Source: Nitrospirota bacterium
GTDB taxonomy: Bacteria; Nitrospirota; Thermodesulfovibrionia; Thermodesulfovibrionales; UBA1546
Direction: 5' to 3'
Length of the DNA stretch: 64,000 nt
Assembly (NCBI GenBank): GCA_021824065.1
Contig: JAKALU010000001.1
Span: 16,154 to 80,153, forward strand
Position numbers and translations under genes: made by a program. Position 1 is the stretch's first letter, and each line of letters starts with the position of its first letter. The notes beneath the pieces were generated by a model. That model made no database searches. It was not told where the DNA came from and worked only from the letters and a program-made list of their open reading frames with translations. Shown piece by piece: positions 2,248 through 63,117 of this stretch.

Positions 2248-3036
2248 TTATACACTTATTAAGGGATCTTTTATTCCTGCCTCTCTGAACCCCTTCGCCC
2301 TGAAAAGACAGCTGTCACACCTGCCGCAGGGTTTGAAAAGAACTTTGACTTTCTGCGGATCATAGCAGCTCCATGTCAGCGAATAATCAAGCCTCAGCTC
2401 TGTGCCTTTTTTAACAATTTCTGCCTTTGTCATACTAATCAATGGTGCGCTAATCTTGAATTTCATCTCCCCTTCAACAGATGCCTTTGTTGCGAGATTG
2501 GCCATATCTTCAAATGCCTTTAGATATTCTGGCCTGCAGTCCGGATAACCGCTATAATCAACCGCATTTGCGCCGATAAAGATATCCCCTGCCTTCAGCA
2601 CCTCTGCCCATGCAAGGGCAAAAGACAGAAAGATTGTGTTTCGGGCAGGAACGTAGGTGATTGGGATTTGAGATTTGAGATTTGAGATTTGAGATTTCGG
2701 CACTTCCATCTTTGATGTCAATGCTGAGCCGCCAATCTCCCTTAAATCGAATTTTATTACAAGATGTTTTTTTACACTTAATGCCAAAGCAATCTTTGTG
2801 GCTGATTCAAGTTCTATTTTATGTCTCTGGTTATAATCAAAACTGAGTGCGTATAATTCATAGCCCCCTGACTTTGCAATGGCGAGAGTAGTTGAGGAGT
2901 CAATACCACCACTTAGAAGGACAATTGCACGCTTGATATTCTGACTTCTGGCTTCCCGCCTCGGCGGGTCGCCGTAGGAGACTGACTTCTGGCTTTTAAC
3001 TTTAATAGATATCGTCCTCTGTTCCTTCTTTCCCAT
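2248..3036 (-). CDS. queC: 7-cyano-7-deazaguanine synthase QueC with an unusual ~43-aa N-terminal extension
   Basis: Contains [10 protein letters not shown] (PP-loop), YVPARNTIF and the C-terminal CGRCDSC zinc site. The nearest in-frame canonical start upstream of the PP-loop is the ATG at 3036. The start is uncertain and the extension is encoded by a repeat element. Confidence 0.85.
2665..2697. repeat. Tandem heptamer GATTTGA x ~4.7 inside queC
   Basis: Read directly: gatttga gatttga gatttga gatttga gattt. Translated in-frame as SQISNLKSQ in the loop before the PITYVPARN motif. Confidence 0.95.
2941..2995. repeat. Composite repeat: 14-nt direct repeats CTGACTTCTGGCTT flanking a CCCGCC-TC-GGCGGG hairpin
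   Basis: Direct repeats at 2941..2954 and 2982..2995, hairpin at 2955..2968. The coding strand reads CCAGAAGTCAG, the same word as the priA tandem array. Confidence 0.9.
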
Positions 3037-4075
3037 CAGGGCCTGTGCTGAAGAGGATGAAATTATTACCTTCTGCTTTATAAATATAAGGTCTTCCCCA
3101 CCTGTCATTAACTTTTGTTATCTGTTCAATTGATGGCGGATATGTGCCATTCTCATACTTGTATGCCTCAATTCTGAATCTGATACCATCTATATCTTCA
3201 GATGCCTTCATACTGTCAATGTTATTACCCCCCTGAAGCACCAATGGGATTAAAGTGATAAAAATACCGATTAAAAATGCGATTGAAAATACAACCGGTG
3301 TAATAAATTTAGCAAGTGCTATCCTCTTTTTTGCTGGTGCCATTACTTCGGGTAAGGCAATCACAGGAGTTACGGGGATAGCCTCTTTTGGCTCTATCGC
3401 ACCTTTTCCCAGGAGTGATACAAGGGCTTTTGACGCCTGAAAACTATCCATCTGACTGGCGTCAACTATAGCGCTGACATCGTTTTCGCCATCCACAAAT
3501 CCGAGTATCTCTTCTTCATCCGGTGTAAGTTCAACACCGGATTTTGCCGTCCTCCCGAATACGGTATCGAGGGTTAGCTTGCCTTCTATAAGTGACCCCT
3601 CATCAATTATGCGGAGACCTTCCATCAGGAGATGCTGCGTATCAAGTGCTATCGGGATCTCTTTATCAACAGGAACTCCCTGTGGTGAAAACTCGTAAAT
3701 CCCTTCCTTCCAGCCAAAAATCTGAACAACAGTCTCTGTTATCTGGGATGTGATAATCTCCTGTAGCTGCTCTTTTTTTACAAGGTCAGTCTTTATAAGG
3801 ATATTGCCTATTTTCGCACCTGTTGACTTCTGCTCTTCGAGTGCCTTCTGAAGGTCTTCATCTTTAATAACTCCTTTTTTTACAAGAACTTTCCCAAGTC
3901 GATTTGCTTCAACCCTCCTTTTTGATTCTGCTGATACGATATTACCTTCGTAAAACATGAGACGGACTTTGTCCAACCTGCCTTCGAGAGTAAGGATGCC
4001 TGTCTTGCGCTGAAAATATATCAGCTGCAATATGTCGGCTAATCCAAACTCTTTTAAAGAGCCCTCTAAAGCCAT
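3002..4075 (-). CDS. DUF4388-domain membrane protein with a C-terminal GspG/pseudopilin-like globular domain
   Basis: The N-terminus [26 protein letters not shown] is typical of DUF4388. It has one TM helix ([24 protein letters not shown]). The C-terminus [10 protein letters not shown]...DRWGRPYIY...[15 protein letters not shown] resembles the T2SS major pseudopilin C-terminal domain. Confidence 0.6.
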
Positions 4076-14910: not shown

Positions 14911-16578
14911 TTAAGATAATTTTTCTTTCGCAGCCTCGCTATACGGGAAAAGCGAGCGCTTCTCTTTTAATGCAGCTCCGATGAATTCTCTGAATAATGG
15001 ATGTGGGTCTGTTGGCCTTGATTTGAACTCAGGGTGGAACTGGCATCCTAAAAACCACGGGTGGTCTCCCATTTCAATAATCTCAACAAGTTCACCGTCA
15101 GGACTCAATCCGCTTATCTTCATGCCGTGTCTTGTGAGTACACCTTTGTATGCATTGTTGAATTCATATCTATGTCTGTGCCTTTCTGCTATTTCCTTTA
15201 TCCCATACGCCCTGTAGGCATTTGTCCCTTCTTCAAGAACACAGGGATACGCACCAAGTCTCATTGTCCCGCCTTTGTCTGAGACGTCTGTTCTTTCTTC
15301 AATCCTTCCTTTTCTGAAGTCAAACCACCTTTCCATGAGATAAATGACAGGGTCTTTTGTATTGAGGTCAAATTCTGTGCTGTTGGCGTTAAGACCGCAT
15401 ACATTCCTCGCATATTCAATCACAGCACACTGCATGCCGAGACATATACCGAAATAAGGGATCTTCTTTTCGCGTGCATACTTTACAGCCTCGATCTTTC
15501 CTTCAATCCCCCTGTATCCGAATCCTCCGGGCACAAGGATACCATCAGCTTCTGCAAGATATTTATCAGCGCCGTGGACTTCGATCTCCTCTGAATCTAT
15601 CCACTGTAAATTTACCCTTGCGTCGTTTGCAATACCGCCATGTGTAAGCGCTTCTATCAGGCTTTTATAAGAATCTTTAAGTCCTACATATTTGCCTACA
15701 ATTGCTATATTTACTTCATTCCTGGGCTCTTTTATCTTTCTTACTATATCCCCCCACTGTCTCAAGTCTGTGTCTCTGGAAGGCAATCTCAGTTTATTTA
15801 TTATCTGCTGGTCAAGTCCTTCTGCATTGAGTGCCAGAGGCACTTCATATATCGTCTCAACATCCATTGCAGTTATTACGGCATCTCCATCGAGGTTACA
15901 GTGGATTGCTATCTTTTTCTTTGCCTCGAGGGTAAGAGGTCTGTCTGTCCTGCAAAGGAGGACGTCAGGCTGGATACCAATTGCACGGAGTTCTCTGACA
16001 CTGTGCTGTGAAGGTTTTGTTTTAAGTTCTCCCGATGTCTTTATATAAGGGACAAGTGTAAGATGAACATAGAGAACATTTTCCCGTCCTACATCATATC
16101 TCATCTGCCTTATTGCCTCTAAAAACGGGAGACTCTCTATGTCACCGATTGTACCGCCTATCTCAACTATCACAACATCATAGTTATTGCTTACAGATTT
16201 TATTGCACGCTTTATCTCATCAGTGATATGGGGCACCACCTGAACTGTATCCCCGAGATAATCTCCACGCCTTTCTTTTGTTATAACGTTGTAGTAAATC
16301 TTCCCTGTTGTGTAATTATTTGCCTGCGTTGTCCTTATATGTGTAAACCTCTCGTAATGCCCTATGTCAAGGTCTGTTTCAGCGCCATCATCTGTTACAA
16401 AGACCTCTCCATGCTGGAATGGGCTTAATGTTCCGGGGTCGACATTGATATAAGGGTCAAGTTTCTGGAGTGTAACCTTAAGTCCTTTTGCTTCAAGGAG
16501 TGCACCTATTGCAGAAGCAGCTATGCCTTTTCCCAGAGATGATACAACTCCACCTGTTACGAAGATAAACTTAGCCAT
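14911..16578 (-). CDS. pyrG: CTP synthase
   Basis: [19 protein letters not shown]..., [10 protein letters not shown] and the glutaminase domain GICLGMQ...HRHRYE. Confidence 0.96.
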
Positions 16579-17366
16579 TTCTTTACCCTCTCTAAGTCCT
16601 CCGGGGTGTCAACCCCGATGGTTTCAAAGAATGTCTCTTTTACCTTTATCCTGAACCCATTCACGAGTGCGCGAAGTTGTTCAAGTTTCTCGGTCTGTTC
16701 CAATTCAACGGGCTTCGTTCCAGCAAGACTTAAAAGCACATCCTTTCTGTAGCTGTAAATGCCGATATGCTTGTACATGAATAGTTCAAAAGTTCCATAG
16801 TTCAAAAGTGCAAACCTTGTACCCCTCATCTTCTCCCCTTCTGCACTTCCGCGCTTCTGCACTTCTGCACTAAAGATATCTCTGTGATATGGTATCGGTG
16901 CCCTCGAAAAATACAAGGCAAATCCTTCCTTGTCGCAAACAACCTTAACAACATTAGGGTCAAAGATTTCTTCAGGGTTTTCTATTTTTTTCATCAGAGT
17001 CCCCATCGATGCCCGTTTATCATCGAGCAGGGTTATAACATCATCAATCATCTCAGGCCTTATCAATGGCTCATCACCCTGAACATTGACAATTATATCA
17101 TAATCCAGTGATGCAGCGACCTCTGCAATCCTGTCTGTTCCTGAGGCATGGGTTTTAGAGGTCATCACTGCCTTTCCTCCAAAAGATACAACCTTATCTA
17201 ATATATCCTTGCTGTCAGTTGCGACAATAATTTCTTTTGCGAGCTTCGATTTCCCTGAGTTCTCATACACATGCTGTATCAGTGGTTTGCCATTTAGGGG
17301 TGCAAGGGGCTTTCCCGGAAAACGGGTCGAATCATAACGGGCAGGGATAATCACAATCGCTGTCAT
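16557..17366 (-). CDS. kdsB: 3-deoxy-manno-octulosonate cytidylyltransferase (CMP-KDO synthetase) with a ~20-aa internal insertion
   Basis: [32 protein letters not shown] and HIGIYSYR motifs. It is about 20 aa longer than typical KdsB, and the extra segment is encoded by tandem words. Confidence 0.9.
16781..16869. repeat. Two adjacent tandem-word arrays inside kdsB: ATAGTTCAAAAGT x2 (period 16) and CTTCYSCR octamer x5
   Basis: 13-mer copies at 16781..16793 and 16797..16809. Octamers cttctccc cttctgca cttccgcg cttctgca cttctgca at 16830..16869. Translated in-frame as [31 protein letters not shown]. Confidence 0.9.
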
Positions 17367-17431
17367 TATTTTTGATAATTATATATGATTGCAGAATAAA
17401 ATTAAATAGAAATAATGTGCTAAAATTCTTC

Positions 17432-19375
17432 ATGGAATTTATTGATGTTGTTTTCCCATTAAATCTCGGTCCATTGACTTACAAATGCCCTGAACATCTA
17501 ATAGACAAAGCTGTGCCAGGCATGCTCGTTTCAGTGCCCCTGAAAAACCAGACAGCAAAGGGAATCATCCTCAGCAAATCCTCTCCCCCTGCACGCTACA
17601 CGCTGAATGCTTTACGCTCTGTTAGCGAAATCCACGGCGAGTCACCTCTGCTTGAACAGCCAATGCTGAAACTTCTCAACTGGATGTCCGAGTATTACAT
17701 TGCAAACAAAGGAATTGTTCTTAAGAGCATGCTGCCAAAGGAGGCGTTTAAACAAGTAAGGGCAAGGAAAAGCAGTTCAGAAGTCAGAAGTCAGAAGTCA
17801 GAAGTCAGATTCCCTGACGCTAATGCTCAGCTCAAAACTGAGATAGACGAAAACATCCTCTCAAAAGTCAATGACTCTATTTCAAAAAAAGAATATAAGA
17901 CATTTCTTCTCCATGCGCCAGCATCTTTGTATGAAATCTCATTTTTTGCAAAACTACTTCAATCGCAACAAAGAGCGATAATCCTTGTCCCTGAAATCGT
18001 GCATATAAACTATATTGCCCCTTTTATCAGAGAAATCGCAGGAGAAAAACTCTGCAATCTACACAGTGCTCTAAGCAAAGGCCAGCGCTCGGATGCATTC
18101 GAAAAAATTTTGTCTGGTGAATGCACTGTAGTGCTTGGAACAAGGATGGCAATCTTTGCCCCTCTAAAAAATGTATCTCTGATTGCGGTCATGCAGGAGC
18201 ACAGCAGTTCGTACAAAACAGAAGAAGGCTTTAGATTCAATGCAAGGGATGTCGCTGTCATGAGGGGTTATCTTGAAAAGGCAACGGTGGTATTATCCTC
18301 GATCTGTCCCTCGGTTGAATCAATTTACAATGTAAAGAATAATAAATATACATTACTGAGACCCGCAGTAACAATGCAGAAACCAAGAATAAAAATAGTG
18401 AACATGTACGAGGAAAAACAGCCATCTCCAAATTTCTCAAAAACAGTTATCGACGCAGTAACATCGTCAGTCAAGAGAAATGAGCGGATTATATTCGTAA
18501 TAAACAGAAAAGGATATTCTTTGCTTACCTGCAAAGAATGCAGTAATACAGAGACATGCGATAAATGCAATATCCCGTTGATATTTCACAAGGATGATAA
18601 GTCACTGAGATGCCATTATTGCGGTACCAAATCCATGCCTCCTGAGAAATGCTCTAAATGCGGTAGTTTTAAGGTTGAGCTTACAGGCTCTGGTATACAG
18701 AGAATTGAGGAAAGCATAAAAAAACTTTTTAATATCGAACCCGTGAGGATAGATAGTGATAAGATAAAAAAGAGGTCAGGATCTGCTGACCTTTCAGAAA
18801 TAATAAAAGGCGGAGCAATACTCCTCGGCACAAAATTAATGACAAAAAGACTTCACCTGTCTAAGGCGGGAGAAAAATTTGGCATGGCAGCAGTTCTTAA
18901 TGCTGATATTTATTTAAACCTTCCTGATTTCAGGGCAATAGAAAAGGCATATCAGGAACTGTCTGTCATATACGATAAAGTAAAGCCCGAAGGCAGGGTA
19001 TTTATACAGACAAGAATGCCCCGGAACTATCTTTTTAAATTTATTAAGAACTATGATTACCCCGGATTCTGTGATGAAGAGATGGCGAAAAGAAAAGAGA
19101 TGTCATATCCACCTTATTCAAAACTTGCGCTTATTACCTTTAAAGGCAGGGATTACGATGATAAAAAAGTCAGTGATGCTGTTAAAAAAGTTTCTGCTGA
19201 TAAAGATATTGAGATCCTTGGTCCTTCGCTCTCTTTCAGCAAAAAAGGACAAAAAGAATATGCCCTGCTTCTCAAAACTGTATCAAAAAACAAACTCCAT
19301 TCCTGTGCAAAAGAGTTTTTAAAACTGCTTGAGGGTTATAAAAATTTAAAGATTAACATTGCTATTGACCCCTAA
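17432..19375 (+). CDS. priA: Primosomal protein N' (replication restart helicase PriA)
   Basis: MEFIDVVFPLNLGPLTY start, helicase core, and Cys-rich zinc insertion CKECSNTETCDKCNIPLIFHKDDKSLRCHYCG...CSKCGS. The start at M21 of ORF 17372..19375 is preferred. Confidence 0.88.
   Translation: MEFIDVVFPLNLGPLTYKCPEHLIDKAVPGMLVSVPLKNQTAKGIILSKSSPPARYTLNALRSVSEIHGESPLLEQPMLKLLNWMSEYYIANKGIVLKSMLPKEAFKQVRARKSSSEVRSQKSEVRFPDANAQLKTEIDENILSKVNDSISKKEYKTFLLHAPASLYEISFFAKLLQSQQRAIILVPEIVHINYIAPFIREIAGEKLCNLHSALSKGQRSDAFEKILSGECTVVLGTRMAIFAPLKNVSLIAVMQEHSSSYKTEEGFRFNARDVAVMRGYLEKATVVLSSICPSVESIYNVKNNKYTLLRPAVTMQKPRIKIVNMYEEKQPSPNFSKTVIDAVTSSVKRNERIIFVINRKGYSLLTCKECSNTETCDKCNIPLIFHKDDKSLRCHYCGTKSMPPEKCSKCGSFKVELTGSGIQRIEESIKKLFNIEPVRIDSDKIKKRSGSADLSEIIKGGAILLGTKLMTKRLHLSKAGEKFGMAAVLNADIYLNLPDFRAIEKAYQELSVIYDKVKPEGRVFIQTRMPRNYLFKFIKNYDYPGFCDEEMAKRKEMSYPPYSKLALITFKGRDYDDKKVSDAVKKVSADKDIEILGPSLSFSKKGQKEYALLLKTVSKNKLHSCAKEFLKLLEGYKNLKINIAIDP
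17777..17810. repeat. Tandem heptamer TCAGAAG x ~4.9 inside priA
   Basis: Read directly: tcagaag x4 followed by tcagat. In-frame translation is SSEVRSQKSEVRF, in the linker before the helicase core. Confidence 0.95.
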
Positions 19376-33083: not shown

Positions 33084-34265
33084 TTAATGCTTGCCTCCAG
33101 CCGATTGACCTGGCTTGCGAATCTCTACCTTAGCACCCGGCATGAGTCTCATCTGACCATCAGTAACCACCTGCTCACCCACTGTTAGTCCCTTTTCGAT
33201 GACTGTCATATCCTCGTATGTGATGCCTGTGGCAACAGGGCGAAGCTCTGCTATATCTCCTTTTACAATGAAAACATACTGCCCCTGCTGTCCTGTCTGT
33301 ATGACATGAGTTGGAACTACCACTGCATCTTGAATGTTTGAAAGGGTAATTCGGACAGTAACAAACTGTCCTGGCCAGAGGTGCTTTCCTTTATTTGCAA
33401 ATGTGCCCCTCAGTTTTATTGTCCCTGTTGTAACATCAACACTGTTATCAATAAAGGTAAGCACCCCTTCTTCAGCCTTACTGTCCTCTCTGGAAAGATA
33501 AGCCTCAACTTTAACTTTTCCGCCTGACATATATTTTTTAATCTCTGAAAGATTCTGCTCAGGCACAGAAAAGCTTACATATACAGGCTGAATCTGGTTT
33601 ATAACAACCATGGGCTTGTCATCATTAGCCTTTATCAGATTTCCTTTGTCTACAAGCATGCCTCCTGTGCGGCCTGATATCGGAGCGTATATTGAACAAT
33701 AGCTCAATTGTAATCTGGCATTTTCCAAAGCAGCCCCGTCAGCCTCAACAGTGGCTCTGAGGGCTTCTGCATTGGCAACAATCTGCTCATACTGGGATTT
33801 GCTTACAAGTTGTTCACGATATAATTCAGTATACCGCTGTACATCTTCATCTGCCTTTTTGGAAAGAGCGGTGTCCCTCAAGAGATTAGCCTTTGCGGAT
33901 TCAAGCGCTGTTTTAAAAGGTCTCGGGTCTATAGTAAAAAGCAAATCTCCCTTATTAACATCCTGCCCTTCCCTGAAATATACATGTGTTAACTCACCGC
34001 CAACTCGTGCCTTTATCTGCACAGTAGAATAAGCTTCAACATTACCGATGGCACGCAATTGCACCGGAACTGTTTTTTGAATCACTGTACCAACTGTTAC
34101 AGGCACTGCAGCCTTCTTTACCTCTTGTCCTGTTTTTCCCTTTGAACAGGCTGGCAAAAACACAAGACAGAGAACAAAAGACGGAAGACAGAAAAAAACA
34201 AATGATGACACTCCCATTTTCATTTTAATGTGCTCCATATTTAATTTGCGTACTAATCTTGCCAT
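33084..34265 (-). CDS. RND efflux periplasmic adaptor (AcrA/MexA-like lipoprotein)
   Basis: Lipobox LVFLPAC, then VTVGTVIQKTVPV..., coiled coil and LSYCSIYAPISGRTG. The true start is probably at one of the internal Met codons (34238-34217). Confidence 0.88.
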   Translation of the reverse strand: MARLVRKLNMEHIKMKMGVSSFVFFCLPSFVLCLVFLPACSKGKTGQEVKKAAVPVTVGTVIQKTVPVQLRAIGNVEAYSTVQIKARVGGELTHVYFREGQDVNKGDLLFTIDPRPFKTALESAKANLLRDTALSKKADEDVQRYTELYREQLVSKSQYEQIVANAEALRATVEADGAALENARLQLSYCSIYAPISGRTGGMLVDKGNLIKANDDKPMVVINQIQPVYVSFSVPEQNLSEIKKYMSGGKVKVEAYLSREDSKAEEGVLTFIDNSVDVTTGTIKLRGTFANKGKHLWPGQFVTVRITLSNIQDAVVVPTHVIQTGQQGQYVFIVKGDIAELRPVATGITYEDMTVIEKGLTVGEQVVTDGQMRLMPGAKVEIRKPGQSAGGKH

Positions 34266-34320
34266 ACAATTAAATCCTGAAAACTTGAATAAATTCCCAT
34301 TCTCCCCTCCTGTATGCTGA

Positions 34321-35685
34321 CTACTGTTTACTGTATACTGCTTTTAAAAGCGTTCCTGTTGCCCGTTTCAACCTGAGAACAGATAACTGGTAGTTATATC
34401 TTGCATCAGCAAGCTGCCTTTCCGCTGTAACAAGCAGGGTGTTGGCGTCCATTACATCTACGCTGTTTGCGAGACCGAACTCAAACTGCCTGGAGATGGC
34501 GTTATAATTATCTCTTGCAAACATAACCTGGTCTTCGAGGGATTTCAAAACTCCCTTCTGGGTCACAATGTCAAGATAGGCACTTTCAACGTCTATATTT
34601 ATTGTCTTCTTTAAATCTTCATAAATGAGTTCGGTTTGCCTGAGTTTCGCCTCTGCCTCTCTCACCTCAGCTTTTCTCAAGCCCCCTTCATAAAACGAGA
34701 AGTTTAGCGTAAGACCTCCGTATATGCTTTCTCTATTAAGAAATGTCGAGGCTGGGTCATCTTCATTCCTTGAATACACCCCTTCAATAGAAAGTGTCGG
34801 CCAGTAGGAACCCCGTGTATATTTAACCTGTTCTTCTTCAATTTTTTTCTGGAGTCCAAGACTCTTAAGCTCAGCCCTTTCCGATAAGGCTACCTGTTTG
34901 AAGGACTCGATTGTTTCAGCCCCCTGAATGTTCACTATATGCTGACTGCTGTCTTCCGTCTCTTTAACATCATAACTTTCATTGATTCCTACTACCCTTG
35001 CGAGAACTGCCCTTGCAAGGGCTAAACTATTCTTTGCCTTAATCTCTTCTGATTGCGCCCCTGATAACTCTGCCTCTGCCCTGAGAAGTGCGGTTTTTGT
35101 AACCTCTCCGACCTTAAGTCTTATAGCAGCAGCATCCCTGTGCTTTGTTAATCTCTCAATGTTTGCTTTCGCGATTTCTACAGCCTTCTTCGAACGAAGA
35201 ACATCATAGTAAGCAGAGGCGACACTGTAAAGATAAGACTCCCTTACAGCGTAGAGATCATATTCGCTTCTCTCAATATTCTTATTTGAGATTTTAAAGG
35301 CGGTAAGCTCTCTCCCGCTTAGAGAGAATGACTGGTCAAGCCTCACACCCCACGCTGTAGAAGTATTGGGCTGAATGACCGAGCCTGTAGAGGAAATTTT
35401 GTTTTCGGTATACCTCGTATAATTTCCAAAGGCAGAAAGCGTTGGTAAAAGGCCGGCCAACGCCTTATCCTTTGCCTTCTCTGCGATATAGAGGTCTTCT
35501 TCTGATAGCTTTATTCTTTCAGCCCGTTCAAGAGCAAACCTGTAGAAGTCCTCAAGTGAATACTCCTGTGCTGCAAGACTGTTAGATTTCAGAAGGACTA
35601 ACAAAAAAGCCAATACACAACCGACCGAAACAAAACCTGCCCTTTTCATATATATCATCCCCTGGTTACTGTATTTTGAACTCAT
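34321..35685 (-). CDS. TolC-family outer membrane efflux protein (OMF 3 of 3)
   Basis: Signal peptide and duplicated TolC repeats. Its ATG overlaps the TetR stop (ATGA), which supports the 35685 start. Confidence 0.85.
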   Translation of the reverse strand: MSSKYSNQGMIYMKRAGFVSVGCVLAFLLVLLKSNSLAAQEYSLEDFYRFALERAERIKLSEEDLYIAEKAKDKALAGLLPTLSAFGNYTRYTENKISSTGSVIQPNTSTAWGVRLDQSFSLSGRELTAFKISNKNIERSEYDLYAVRESYLYSVASAYYDVLRSKKAVEIAKANIERLTKHRDAAAIRLKVGEVTKTALLRAEAELSGAQSEEIKAKNSLALARAVLARVVGINESYDVKETEDSSQHIVNIQGAETIESFKQVALSERAELKSLGLQKKIEEEQVKYTRGSYWPTLSIEGVYSRNEDDPASTFLNRESIYGGLTLNFSFYEGGLRKAEVREAEAKLRQTELIYEDLKKTINIDVESAYLDIVTQKGVLKSLEDQVMFARDNYNAISRQFEFGLANSVDVMDANTLLVTAERQLADARYNYQLSVLRLKRATGTLLKAVYSKQ

Positions 35686-40707: not shown

Positions 40708-40785
40708 CCAAAATTCAATTAAAAAATTAAAATTAAAAGTTCAAAGTTGAGGGATTCCACAATTTTAAATTTTGAACTTTCTTGA

Positions 40786-40861
40786 GGGCCCATAGCTCAG
40801 TTGGTAGAGCTACCGGCTCATAACCGGTTGGTCCCAGGTTCGAGTCCTGGTGGGCCCACCA
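40786..40861 (+). tRNA. tRNA with CAT anticodon (elongator Met or lysidine-type Ile2), CCA encoded
   Basis: Perfect cloverleaf folded by hand: acceptor GGGCCCA/TGGGCCC, D arm GCTC-AGTTGGTA-GAGC, anticodon arm ACCGG-CTCATAA-CCGGT, T arm CCAGG-TTCGAGT-CCTGG. The G1-C72 pair and the anticodon stem rule out an initiator. Confidence 0.93.
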
Positions 40862-40898: not shown

Positions 40899-40940
40899 AA
40901 GTTAAAAAGTTGAAAGTTAAAACTCTCAACTCATAACTCT
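40899..40940. repeat. Heptamer-phased words downstream of the tRNA (AAGTTAA AAAGTTG AAAGTTA AAACTCT CAACTCA TAACTCT)
   Basis: Read directly. A related TTNAAAG-type array lies upstream at 40719..40753. Confidence 0.8.
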
Positions 40941-49598: not shown

Positions 49599-51595
<1,997 letters not shown>

Positions 51596-60274: not shown

Positions 60275-61903
60275 ATGGCTAAACAGCTTCTTTTTTATGA
60301 GGCAGCAAGGGCAGAGATACTCAAAGGTGTAAGCCAGCTTACTGATGCAGTAAAGGCGACATTAGGACCAAAGGGAAGAAATGCGATACTCGACAAAAAA
60401 TATGGTGCACCGACAATAACAAAAGACGGTGTCACTGTTGCAAAAGAGATAGAGCTTAAAGATCCGTTTCAGAATATGGGTGCACAGCTCGTCAGAGAGG
60501 TTGCATCAAAGACATCTGATGTAGCAGGAGACGGGACAACCACAGCAACTGTACTTGCGCACGCTATTTACAGAGAGGGGATGAAGAATGTTGTTGCCGG
60601 TGCAAACCCCATGGATATCAAGAGGGGGGTCGAGAAAGCAGTAGAGGTAGTTATAGCAGAGCTTAAGAAACTCAGCAAACCTGTTCAGGACAAAAAAGAA
60701 ATAGCACAGGTTGGAACAATATCTGCAAATAATGACCCATCTATTGGTGAGTTGATTGCAGAGGCAATGGACAAGGTAGGAAAAGACGGTGTAATCACAG
60801 TTGAAGAGGCAAAGAGCATGGCAACAACACTCGATGTTGTTGAGGGCATGCAGTTTGACAGGGGCTATATATCTCCATATTTCATCACAGACCCTGAAAG
60901 GATGGAGTGTGTACTTGATGACGTGTTTATCCTCATCAACGAAAAGAAAATCTCAACCATGAAGGACCTTCTTCCAATACTCGAGCAGACAGCAAAGATG
61001 GGAAGACCATTGTTAATCATTGCTGAGGAGGTTGAAGGAGAAGCGCTTGCAACATTGGTTGTCAATAAGTTACGCGGTACAATCCAGGTGTGTGCTGTAA
61101 AGGCACCCGGTTTTGGCGAAAGAAGAAAGGCAATGCTTGAGGACATCGCAATTCTTACAGGCGGCACAATGATATCAGAAGACATCGGGATAAAGCTTGA
61201 GAGCATAAAGATCTCCGACCTCGGAAGGGCAAAGAAGATTACTGTGGATAAAGAAAATACAACTATTGTTGAGGGCGCAGGAGACCATGCAAAAATTCAG
61301 GGCAGGGTAAAGCAGATAAAGGCACAGGTTGAAGAAACAACATCTGATTATGATAGAGAAAAATTACAGGAGCGTCTTGCAAAGATTGTTGGCGGAGTTG
61401 CAGTAATTAATGTCGGTGCAGCAACAGAGACAGAGATGAAGGAGAAAAAGGCAAGGGTTGAAGATGCGCTCCATGCAACAAGGGCTGCTGTTGAAGAGGG
61501 AATTGTACCTGGCGGAGGAGTCGCTGTTCTCAGATGCCTGCCCGCACTTAAAGCCCTTAAGCTCGAAGGTGACCAGCAGATAGGCATTGAAATTGTAAAA
61601 AAGGCTCTTGAAGAACCGATCAGACAGATAGTCAATAATGCAGGCATTGAGGGTTCTGTAGTAGTTGAAAAGGTAAAGCACGCAAAAGAGACAAACTACG
61701 GCTTTGATGCAGATAAAGAAGAGTATGTGGATATGATAAAGGCAGGCATTATAGACCCTACAAAGGTGACAAGATATGCACTCCAGAATGCAGCATCAGT
61801 TGCGGCATTGATGCTCACGACTGCTGTGATGGTCACAGATATCCCTGAGGAAAAACCTGAGGCGCCAGCAATGCCTCCAGGCGGAATGGGCGGGATGTAT
61901 TAA
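60275..61903 (+). CDS. groL: Chaperonin GroEL
   Basis: [18 protein letters not shown]...[12 protein letters not shown]...C-terminal GGMGGMY. Confidence 0.98.
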
Positions 61904-61912
61904 AAGCAGGGC

Positions 61913-61940
61913 TTAGCGATTAGCGGTTAGGGATTAGCTG
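61913..61940. repeat. Tandem heptamer TTAGSKR x4 downstream of groEL
   Basis: Read directly: ttagcga ttagcgg ttaggga ttagctg. Confidence 0.9.
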
Positions 61941-61949
61941 AATTTAATG

Positions 61950-61985
61950 TAGGGGCGTATTGAATACGCCCCTATTCATTTTTGT
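61950..61985 (+). terminator. Rho-independent terminator of groESL
   Basis: TAGGGGCGTA-ttgaa-TACGCCCCTA, a 10-bp stem, followed by TTCATTTTTG. Confidence 0.8.
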
Positions 61986-62028: not shown

Positions 62029-63117
62029 GTGAAGAAAAATATTGTAGTCATACTGTTATGCCTTGTACTTCTTAATCTCATCTATATATCCATAGAATTT
62101 TTAGTCCCTTTGCCGGAAAGTACAAAGACAAAAGAGATACAGATACCAAATGGCGCCACATTCAGACAGGCAATTGAGATTCTTTCAAAAGAAGGGCTGA
62201 TAAGGGACAAAAACCTTTTCTTATTTATCGGCAGGCTTACAGGGCTGCACAGGAAAATAAGGGCAGGATTCTATTCTATTACAGGTGCAACAAATCCGCT
62301 TGATATCTTATTGCTTCTCAGGAGCGGACAGATTGTAGAGTATTCAATAACTATTGTTGAGGGGGATTCTCTTCTTGAGATAGGGGAAAAACTTTCAGGC
62401 AAAAATATTGTAGATATAGAAACATTCAGAAAACTTACACGGAGCAGAAACCTTTTGAATGCCTACAATATCACTGCGCCTTCGATAGAAGGCTATATAT
62501 TCCCTGCCACTTATCAGTTGCCCAAGGGCATAGAGCCGGAAAATGCATTGGGCATGATGATTAATACTATGCGTGATAGATTCAATGATAAATTGCGGGC
62601 AAGGGCCAAAGATATAGGTTTTACAGAGAGGGAGGTCCTTACGCTCGCTTCTATAATAGAAAAGGAGGCTATAATAGACAGTGAAAGGCCACTGATCTCT
62701 GCTGTATACCATAATAGGCTTAGGAAAAAAATGTCTTTGCAGGCAGACCCAACTGCTATTTATGGCATAAAGAGCTCAAAAGAGAGAATAACAATTAAAG
62801 ATTTAAAACGGAAAACCCCATATAACACATATGTTATAAAAGGTCTCCCGCCAGGGCCGATTGCTTCACCCGGTATCAAATCAATTGTTGCAGCGCTCAA
62901 TCCTGCAGACGTGCCTTATATATATTTTGTCTCAAACAATGATGGCACTCATCAGTTCTCTGTTACATCAGAAGAGCATCTTAAGGCAGTAGAAACCTAC
63001 AGATTAATGAGACAAATAGAGAAAGAGATACAGAAACAAAAAGAGAAAGAAAACCAGAAAGAGATAGAGAATAAAGAGAAGAATAAAGAAAATGGGAAGA
63101 AAAATGGCAGCTCGTAA
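62029..63117 (+). CDS. mltG: Endolytic murein transglycosylase MltG (YceG-like) with a K/E-rich C-terminal tail
   Basis: N-terminal TM. IPNGATFRQAIEILSKEGLI, GYIFPATY, ASIIEKEA, LQADPT and YNTY motifs. GTG start. Confidence 0.88.
   Translation: MKKNIVVILLCLVLLNLIYISIEFLVPLPESTKTKEIQIPNGATFRQAIEILSKEGLIRDKNLFLFIGRLTGLHRKIRAGFYSITGATNPLDILLLLRSGQIVEYSITIVEGDSLLEIGEKLSGKNIVDIETFRKLTRSRNLLNAYNITAPSIEGYIFPATYQLPKGIEPENALGMMINTMRDRFNDKLRARAKDIGFTEREVLTLASIIEKEAIIDSERPLISAVYHNRLRKKMSLQADPTAIYGIKSSKERITIKDLKRKTPYNTYVIKGLPPGPIASPGIKSIVAALNPADVPYIYFVSNNDGTHQFSVTSEEHLKAVETYRLMRQIEKEIQKQKEKENQKEIENKEKNKENGKKNGSS

Follow-up and report, generated by a model that had tools for sequence, protein, structure and literature searches.

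The window analyzed here is a stretch of 64,000 nucleotides from contig JAKALU010000001.1 of a Nitrospirota bacterium of the order Thermodesulfovibrionales, and all positions given below follow its numbering. Its minus strand carries the gene queC (Table 1), the reading frame of which contains two sets of very small repeats: a tandem heptamer array in a loop of the enzyme and a 55-nt unit in front of the conserved core. The open reading frame (ORF) 2248..3108, of 286 aa, matched the Pfam profile PF06508 (E = 2.5e-74, residues 60-277, profile positions 1-209 of 210), and the queC product also matched the solved QueC structures 3bl5 and 2pg3. The motifs LLSGGIDS, which includes the SGGxDS PP-loop, and CGRCDSC, the C-terminal cysteine cluster, both fall in invariant alignment columns. 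By family profile and motifs the ORF is thus predicted to be QueC, the 7-cyano-7-deazaguanine synthase, with a core spanning about 2937 down to 2251. The gene upstream overlaps the extended queC reading frame with its last 35 nt, and this gene order is kept in relatives. The nearest relatives of the window are Nitrospirota/Thermodesulfovibrionales genomes from metagenome assemblies, whose loci and products are cited here by L and P numbers. A scan of Rfam for a preQ1 riboswitch or other known RNA family near queC gave no match at 2500-3200 even with E <= 10, and across the window as a whole a single tRNA was all that exceeded the gathering score.

On the coding strand the heptamer array is composed of 4.7 perfect copies of AAATCTC plus one degenerate unit, and Tandem Repeats Finder (TRF) gave it period 7, 5.3 copies, 96% matches and a score of 67. 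Its in-frame translation makes up residues 114-125 of the 262-aa protein, directly before ITYVPARN. TRF and translation confirmed the original prediction, made from the sequence alone, that an array inside queC is read in frame and encodes SQISNLKSQ. That prediction also took the array for an insertion, and this part did not hold: there is no net insertion, the loop has the base length of the clade, and the array is common to orthologs. The distance from LLSGG to TYVPARN is 261 nt, the commonest value in a clade range of 249-360 nt, and the loop is 1-4 residues longer than in the two solved QueC structures. SQISNLKSQ or a one-residue variant of it is found in P0002, P0003, P0005, P0008, P0020, P0050 and P0059, which are 67-82% identical to the QueC of the window.

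Seven sequences (the window, L001, L085 and L104-L107) were compared at the DNA level, and the unit count of the array is identical in all of them. Nucleotide identity of the six orthologs to the window is 86-94% in the array versus 68-79% in the rest of the gene. Among pairs coding for the same amino acid, in a set picked by peptide identity and with phylogenetically non-independent pairs, the codon is identical in 172 of 240 cases (72%) in the array versus 1505 of 3337 (45%) in the rest of the gene and 558 of 1337 (42%) for the array's same amino acids elsewhere in queC. Columns with an invariant amino acid also have an invariant codon in 4/10 cases in the array versus 5/115 in the rest. The queC array evolves more slowly than the remaining gene, synonymous sites included. 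Sequences of the SQISNLKSQ type are scattered in a neighbor-joining tree of the conserved core, which refuted their monophyly, and in other lineages the C-terminal end of longer loops often still reads xIxNLKSx, which agrees with an array already present in the ancestor and subsequently lengthened or overwritten. To judge from these comparisons, the AAATCTC array is a copy of long standing, fixed and inherited vertically, and not a recent insertion. In an AlphaFold2 model (mean pLDDT 82.6), residues 102-131 are predicted as coil with pLDDT around 50. Three 7-nt units make seven codons, so that array peptides repeat every seven residues; the queC array peptide has I and L at a/d-like spacing, a feature also described for TAACTGA repeats, and its 12 residues are too few for a coiled coil.

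The second feature, at 2941-2995, begins and ends with the 14-mer AAGCCAGAAGTCAG, which occurs exactly twice on the minus strand; with up to two mismatches it gave nine matches versus 0.67 expected. The 27 nt between the two copies contain CCCGCCGAGGCGGG (2955-2968) and form a palindromic element, TCTCCTACGGCGACCCGCCGAGGCGGG. The 14-mers are themselves made of alternating units of an AAGYCAG array (AAGCCAG, AAGTCAG), which the 27-mer splits at a unit boundary. As predicted, the repeat word is that of the array in priA (CAGAAGTCAG is common to both). The anatomy of direct repeat, hairpin and direct repeat that had been proposed for this site was therefore found, but the direct repeats are the two halves of one array: since they follow its own periodicity, a target duplication is indistinguishable from array units, and none is demonstrable.

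Beyond the window, the 27-mer is dispersed over at least 20 sites, L001, L084 and 17 metagenome loci among them, in copies of the form TCTCCT(NN)GGCGACCCGCCG(R)GGCGGG. The L001 copy lies at queC site 3 (Table 1) inside an AGGGGTT array, and the L084 copy at queC site 2, inside an array split into AGAAGCCAGAAGTCAG and AAGTCAGAAGTCAG. All 17 metagenome copies and the L084 copy are within long sense-strand ORFs, and the L001 copy is inside queC. Their hosts differ and by eye look like housekeeping genes (MurE-, ABC-ATPase- and HemC-like motifs, and another queC), and the element nearly always stands between ...TCAG and AAG... of an AAGTCAG-type array. Across copies it is read in all three frames, giving for example VSFGDPPRRE and SPSATRRGGK. 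Alone it folds as a single hairpin of -11.9 to -14.4 kcal/mol; copies vary within the bulge, and in the divergent L017 copy there is a compensatory change from T-A to C-G. The 55-nt units of the window and L084 are identical at 52 of 55 positions and occupy different places in queC, in proteins that are 68% identical (BLASTP). The GC hairpin of the unit is not followed by a T-run, which excludes a classical terminator.

These two features are part of a wider pattern. In the window, seven arrays have a period of 7 or 8 and 3.5 copies or more, versus a mean of 0.04 and a maximum of 2 in 100 dinucleotide-preserving shuffles, and four score 50 or more, versus none in any shuffle. The excess over shuffled sequence, which the original prediction had left to be tested, is thus real, and a chance origin was not upheld. 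Five of the seven arrays are translated, in queC, kdsB (two), priA and tgt. Arrays of 4-5 units of 7-8 nt do lie in loops of these genes and are read through in frame; of the further sites listed beforehand, 16781, 17777 and 51031 fall inside the housekeeping genes kdsB, priA and tgt, whereas 40719 and 61913 fall outside genes.

A survey of arrays of at least three copies in 83 loci (about 500 kb, mostly Thermodesulfovibrionales) found 126 with period 7, 17 with period 8 and six each with periods 6 and 9, and perfect runs repeat the period-7 excess. Flanks of the Nitrospirota ingroup loci contain about 10 arrays per 100 kb. Loci of other phyla contain five arrays in 81 kb (6 per 100 kb), four of them in the doubtfully binned L060 and a single one in all the others. 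L060 is labelled Syntrophorhabdaceae; its four arrays are typical heptamer arrays, its QueC is 69% identical to that of the window, and it may be a mis-binned Thermodesulfovibrionales contig. Rounded copy numbers are 3 in 23 arrays, 4 in 72, 5 in 66, 6 in six and above 6 in seven. Array length has its mode at 31-33 nt, perfect arrays end at about 5 units, and numbers drop sharply above 5.5 copies. Three hotspots in and around queC account for 109 arrays, the words of which differ among lineages. The queC arrays are heptanucleotide repeats in the established sense, with head-to-tail 7-nt units beyond chance and a preference for period 7.

The hotspots are variable in length and strictly in frame. 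Motif-to-motif spacing takes 30 and 35 distinct lengths at queC sites 2 and 3, and it is divisible by three in 84/84 loci (site 2) and 83/84 loci (site 3), with 82/84 lacking stops. The exceptions are two metagenome-assembled genomes of the MFD series, L065 and L074, in which sequencing error is suspected. The frame being kept and stops being absent across loci, the repeats are translated and not bypassed. An array of at least three heptamers shows all seven circular triplets in each frame, and only units without a stop triplet on the sense strand survive, which explains the strict orientation of the arrays.

The original prediction saw here the architecture of phase-variable contingency loci. 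On such a reading, slippage by one unit would switch queC, kdsB, priA and tgt off and on. A unit length that is not a multiple of three and 4.7 perfect copies inside a reading frame are indeed what such a locus would have. However, the frame figures given above support no out-of-frame (OFF) allele, L065 and L074 being the only exceptions, and the unit count is the same across species in the seven sequences. The exact proteins are on record from several metagenome assemblies, the 262-aa QueC in 6 public contigs and KdsB and Tgt in 8 each; neither these contigs nor the seven sequences show any copy-number polymorphism at the level of consensus assemblies, to which this comparison speaks. The hosts are genes of core metabolism and replication, not surface, virulence or restriction genes, and perfect arrays do not go beyond about 5 units, which would follow if selection removes longer, unstable ones. 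Phase variation is therefore very improbable, and this part of the prediction falls.

The same modules recur in different genes. Tgt homologs have one length-variable loop (WAxxCKE...ALFGI), which carries the peptide types of the QueC hotspots: IQDxGYKxQDK...SCIVHHA, SELRVKS...TQNSKLKTQ, KSTPPxPPLxxGGxGG and TRRxGDTE...SPIHxFTHSPI. A composite of (RCAGGAT)n, an A-rich spacer and (ATCRTGC)n, with arms complementary at 5-6 of 7 positions, was found in tgt (L112), in queC (L009, L041), directly upstream of queC (L003, L028) and, in L006, some 2 kb downstream. Complementarity of adjacent arrays holds also for CAGAAGT/ATTCTGA and AAGAGTC/AACTCTT; as a general rule it was rejected, since it fails for CGTTCAG/AAACTCC and for the kdsB pair. 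Clustering of heptamer words at one substitution was likewise discarded, because single linkage merges nearly all of them and the use of rotations and both strands is too permissive.

Whole modules also come and go between close relatives. P0043 and P0036 (97.4% identical) differ by an 11-residue hairpin element, P0018 and P0069 (93.5%) by a 30-residue double array, and P0006 and P0012 (89%) by a 29-residue array plus the 27-nt element. In L003 and L004, 92% identical in queC, different palindromes (TCCCGATTTATTCGGGA and TCCGCCGCGGCGGA) occupy the same point of one AGTTCAA array at site 3, as if the hairpin within the array had been replaced. On the other hand, L028 and L029 carry nearly identical double arrays at 73% overall identity, and a near-identical AGTTCAA array is common to four lineages that are 70-82% identical.

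Some further elements were seen at these sites. At queC site 3 the window itself has AAAGTCAAAGTTC (2340-2352, minus strand; peptide KVKVLFK), which looks like a remnant of about two units of an AGTTCAA-family array, and relatives carry a full-length array of this family there. There is also an in-frame palindrome of the form CCCCCC..CCCCCC-spacer-GGGGGG..GGGGGG, which encodes peptides of the type PPLPPL...GGxGG in QueC and Tgt loops (queC site 3 of L020, L028 and L029; Tgt homologs P0134, P0136, P0222 and others). The 33-nt near-palindrome TCGGAGCGACTCTCAGCGGAGACTCGCTTCGAG (peptide RSDSQRRLASR) is nested in ACAGGAT arrays upstream of queC in L001 and at queC site 2 of P0043, and is absent from the 97%-identical P0036.

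We consider both queC features, with a probability of about 0.7, to be members of a single lineage-specific family of very small repeats found throughout the genomes of Thermodesulfovibrionales. The family would consist of arrays of 4-5 tandem units of 7 nt, less often 8 nt, and of small nested palindromes, and the arrays would often be paired as quasi-complementary fold-back modules. Such repeats may arise or land anywhere, spreading or expanding through the genome. Within genes, the copies that survive would be those that add a multiple of three nucleotides, have no stop triplet on the sense strand and sit in permissive loops or termini, where they would simply be translated. The AAATCTC array of queC would then encode a flexible loop and be ordinary, unusually conserved coding sequence, not a switch. 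In the 55-nt unit, the 27-nt palindrome splits an AAGYCAG array of four units, at a site that is intergenic spacer in most relatives.

A different origin, purely in place by replication slippage and concerted evolution and without any movement, would make the shared words a product of mutational or compositional bias. According to Mrazek (2007), as relayed in PMC4679880, heptanucleotides are the commonest long simple repeats in many bacteria, genic units are expected to be multiples of three, and a 7-nt polymerase footprint has been proposed as the reason for period 7. Graded series of peptides suggest unit-wide changes in place. Against this stand the identical composite modules, spacers included, in different genes, the 55-nt unit that is 95% identical at two queC positions in QueC proteins only 68% identical, and the presence or absence of whole modules between relatives that are 93-97% identical. 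We regard formation in place alone as quite unlikely.

Several points also weigh against a family of spreading passengers. Its mobility is inferred only from dispersal and from patterns of presence and absence, no target duplication being readable inside an array, and slippage plus gene conversion may have spread the repeats instead. No enzyme or mechanism of spread has been identified for them. The arrays are more conserved than synonymous sites, which a purely neutral passenger model does not predict, and their slow change may point to constraint at the level of the nucleic acid. Simple slippage would not be expected to produce the 4-5-unit peak and the sharp fall above 5.5. A passenger model thus leaves the preference for period 7, the 4-5-unit peak and the array conservation unexplained, and the latter two would allow a function at the nucleic-acid level or a dedicated factor by which the words are written or read.

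One possibility, compatible with the repeat family proposed above, is that the arrays and perhaps the palindrome are functional cis-elements within coding sequence, serving in mRNA or DNA as binding sites or structures for a conserved factor and maintained through selection at the nucleotide level, with the peptide as a tolerated by-product. The slow change of the arrays relative to the rest of the gene would fit this, as would the double arrays of L028 and L029, the AGTTCAA array kept in four diverged lineages, the recurrence of the same words across genes and genomes and the tight peak of array length. Many arrays lie just upstream of starts without an obvious Shine-Dalgarno sequence, which recalls the TAACTGA repeats of Beggiatoaceae (PMC4679880). 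However, the units at one site can be wholly different between lineages, close relatives do without whole modules with no apparent consequence, the seven sequences were selected by peptide and their pairs are non-independent, and homogenization within an array could also erase new variants. No recognizing factor is known, and the RNA fold of the queC leader (2925-3010; -19.7 kcal/mol) is not distinctive, being no better than shuffled sequence (z = -1.07). Such a function seems to us unlikely as the main explanation.

Somewhat less doubtful, and still speculative, is that the repeats represent an undescribed class of ultra-small mobile or templated modules, the words of which would be held constant across the order by a dedicated trans-acting factor and which would regularly remodel surface loops and N-termini of core enzymes in frame. 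The modules would be heptamer-array fold-backs of about 30 nt per arm and nested palindromes of 14-33 nt, the factor, which would write or read the words, might be a recombinase, polymerase or RNA-binding protein, and one such system would have produced both the array in queC and the 55-nt unit.

Whether the 55-nt unit is translated depends on the start codon of queC, which we infer from orthologs. In the 78 orthologous loci where the SGG motif was found, an ATG, GTG or TTG lies within eight codons of the motif in 72, and in 23 of these an ATG stands exactly where the window has ATC. Some relatives use a second start, an ATG within the GAT GAC codons of the upstream gene; it is lost in the window, where the codons read GAC GAT. 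With both usual ATGs lost, the nearest canonical start is ATG 3036. The ORF translation confirmed, as had been predicted, that this is the nearest ATG, GTG or TTG in frame upstream of the PP-loop and that translation from a canonical start must pass through the 55-nt unit. The proposed N-terminal extension is probable on these grounds, but the ortholog alignment places the usual start downstream of 2941, at the codon that is ATC here. At least five other lineages (L007, L018, L019, L030, L051) have no canonical start nearby and need one upstream; in L019 a CCAATCC array covers the start position, which sets a precedent for repeat-derived N-terminal extensions. Gene callers chose ATG 3036 in all public copies and the equivalent ATG in the products P0009, P0019 and P0028.

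Two observations reduce what can be drawn from the leader. First, the array word and the palindrome are free of stops in all three sense frames, so that the open frame across the unit is uninformative on translation and was discarded as support for the extension. Furthermore, no obvious Shine-Dalgarno sequence was seen in the queC leaders inspected in the clade, those of clear-ATG orthologs included, and the start cannot be chosen by this criterion. Initiation could instead occur at the near-cognate AUC 2937-2935 or at another non-canonical codon, in which case the extension would not be made and the 55-nt unit would be a 5'-leader element. The clustering of starts close to the SGG motif, 23 of them at a codon one base away from the ATC, agrees with this, as do the arrays and hairpins that are intergenic at the equivalent position in relatives and the silence of the open frame. 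AUC is, however, a very poor initiator in the bacteria studied, and the five lineages that likewise need an upstream start and the choice of the gene callers speak for ATG 3036. We therefore take a non-canonical start to be possible and clearly the less likely course, and translation of the extension from ATG 3036 to be rather probable. The 55-nt unit probably became coding on loss of the ATG, with translation from ATG 3036 thereafter. Residues 1-35 are coil with pLDDT around 60 in the AlphaFold2 model, and the extension would be a disordered N-terminal tail of about 33 residues.

The phenomenon extends two known classes, simple repeats of heptanucleotides and palindromic elements lying in frame, of which those of Rickettsia are an example. 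The original prediction noted a resemblance to the short tandem heptamers (STRR) of heterocystous cyanobacteria, and it is apt: like STRR, the GGGAATC repeats of Xanthomonas and the GGGGA(C/T)T repeats of Nostoc, the present arrays have tandem 7-nt units, about four or more per array, are numerous and lineage-restricted and favor period 7. The G-rich heptamers of Xanthomonas and Nostoc usually have at least four units, are mostly intergenic and show under-representation within coding DNA (PMC4692102). While known heptamer arrays are mostly intergenic, five of the seven in the window are translated in housekeeping genes. The present arrays also differ in having many words side by side, often in quasi-complementary pairs and repeatedly at homologous protein loops. 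No tandem units of STRR (CCCCAGT, TTGGTCA, CAACAGT), Xanthomonas, Nostoc or TAACTGA type were found within the window. TAACTGA repeats occur in marine Beggiatoaceae, some cyanobacteria and Bacteroidetes in sets of 2-6, often directly upstream of starts without a Shine-Dalgarno sequence, and inside ORFs their orientation is dictated by the stop codons of the unit (MacGregor 2015, PMC4679880). Similarly, TATCATG-type arrays precede queC in relatives of the window, at -45 to -12, and no Shine-Dalgarno sequence is obvious there. TAACTGA is, however, a single dominant word and mostly intergenic, whereas the present family has dozens of words and frequent in-frame copies in core enzymes.

The Rickettsia palindromic elements (RPE), the classic example of selfish DNA read in frame, are dispersed palindromes that lie in frame in unrelated metabolic genes and are tolerated by protein structure (PMC10969869). 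The 27-mer is RPE-like in being a dispersed, palindromic, hairpin-forming family in unrelated genes, a likeness of description. RPE are about 100-150 bp long with a conserved peptide in one frame, whereas the present element has 27 nt, is read in three frames and is nested in heptamer arrays. As for ends of the type seen in miniature inverted-repeat transposable elements, paired arrays are complementary at 5-6 of 7 positions in some modules only, and the flanking 14-mers cannot be told from array periodicity. The small dispersed repeats (SDR) of Nostoc, of 21-27 nt, reportedly have hairpin potential, nested insertion and presence or absence at orthologous sites. The 27-mer resembles them in size, as they are described; phylum and sequence are different, so that membership cannot be claimed, and SDR have, in the part of the literature covered, been reported only from Nostocaceae. 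With contingency loci the present arrays share a unit that is not a multiple of three inside a reading frame; unlike them, they show no copy-number polymorphism or out-of-frame allele, have housekeeping hosts and are conserved across species. Repeat units in ORFs of Borgs are said to be divisible by three, while the present units have 7-8 nt and their peptide repeats every seven residues through all three frames. The likeness to Borgs lies in repeats within ORFs that give new, probably disordered protein segments (PMC9879509). A literature search for heptamer repeats in Nitrospirae/Nitrospirota or Thermodesulfovibrio returned nothing specific.

In coding regions, repeats with units indivisible by three are expected either to be eliminated or to serve as switches. 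The present repeats are tolerated by a whole bacterial order, in frame and at the same loops of core enzymes, with modules recurring across genes, and they are not assembly artefacts. If the proposed family is real, it would be a second large-scale case, after RPE, of selfish or semi-selfish DNA reshaping protein surfaces. Annotation in the clade is affected in its start codons, in apparent "insertions" in alignments and in boundaries drawn by homology. The tight length peak and the conservation above synonymous sites raise the question of a dedicated factor that recognizes heptamer words.

Table 1. Positions of queC, its repeats and hotspots, and the other arrays of the 64,000-nt window.
Feature	Position	Strand	Remarks
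queC coding sequence	2248..3036	-	called from ATG 3036; 262 aa plus stop
Heptamer array in queC	2661..2697	-	37 nt; AAATCTC; loop before ITYVPARN
Proximal half of four-unit array	2941..2954	-	AAGCCAG AAGTCAG; exact 14-mer repeat
27-nt palindromic dispersed element	2955..2981	-	TCTCCTACGGCGACCCGCCGAGGCGGG; nested at array unit boundary
Distal half of four-unit array	2982..2995	-	AAGCCAG AAGTCAG; exact 14-mer repeat
ATC codon at usual start position	2935..2937	-	MKRAVVLL in orthologs, IKRAIVLL in the window
Nearest canonical in-frame start, ATG	3034..3036	-	within the upstream gene's 3' end; +1 frame relative to the PDGKEG codons there
queC hotspot, site 1			just upstream of the start
queC hotspot, site 2			loop before IPxTYVPARN
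queC hotspot, site 3			loop between SCYDPQ and PCGRCDSC
Upstream gene	3002..4075	-	DUF4388/PatA_N domain and T2SS-G-like C-terminus (Pfam); ends at 3002
8-mer array in kdsB	16783..16814	-	sense TTTGAACT x4; TRF; Pfam CTP_transf_3
8-mer array in kdsB	16830..16871	-	sense TGCAGAAG x5.2; TRF
Perfect heptamer array in priA	17777..17809	+	TCAGAAG x4.7; linker after the 3' DNA-binding domain
8-mer array in tgt	51031..51066	-	sense GGTCAAAG x4.5; single length-variable Tgt loop of the clade
Intergenic heptamer array	61913..61938	+	TTAGCGA x3.7; stop codons in both orientations
Degenerate heptamer array	34310..34340	-	covers the 3' end of ORF 34321..35685 plus the spacer ahead of a HlyD-family gene starting at 34265

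Among the other arrays of the window, the two in kdsB together lengthen a loop by 16 aa versus a solved KdsB structure, and the loop with the tgt array is 4 residues longer than in a solved Tgt. The TTAGCGA array lies between the stop of ORF 60275..61903, the C-terminus of which (PPGGMGGMY) is GroEL-like by eye, and a GC-rich hairpin with a T-run (GTAGGGGCGTATTGAATACGCCCCTAT TCATTTTT; region 61913-61985), and this stem and T-run look like an intrinsic terminator. Short AT-rich arrays of AATTAAAA and AAGTTAA types, at 40717-40738 and 40899-40922, flank tRNA-Met (40786-40861), the only tRNA gene in the window. A purine-rich imperfect repeat with period 6/12/24 nt was found at 63012-63071 in the YceG/MltG-like ORF 62029..63117 (plus strand); it encodes a K/E-rich low-complexity tail (RQIEKEIQKQKEKENQKEIENKEKNKENGKKNG) after the YceG domain and is of a different kind from the heptamer arrays. 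The genes next to the arrays lie close together: kdsB shares 22 nt (16557-16578) with the downstream ORF 14911..16578, the equivalent gene in L108 having CTP synthase domains, and the start region of kdsB (17351-17378) stands back to back with the divergent priA ORF.

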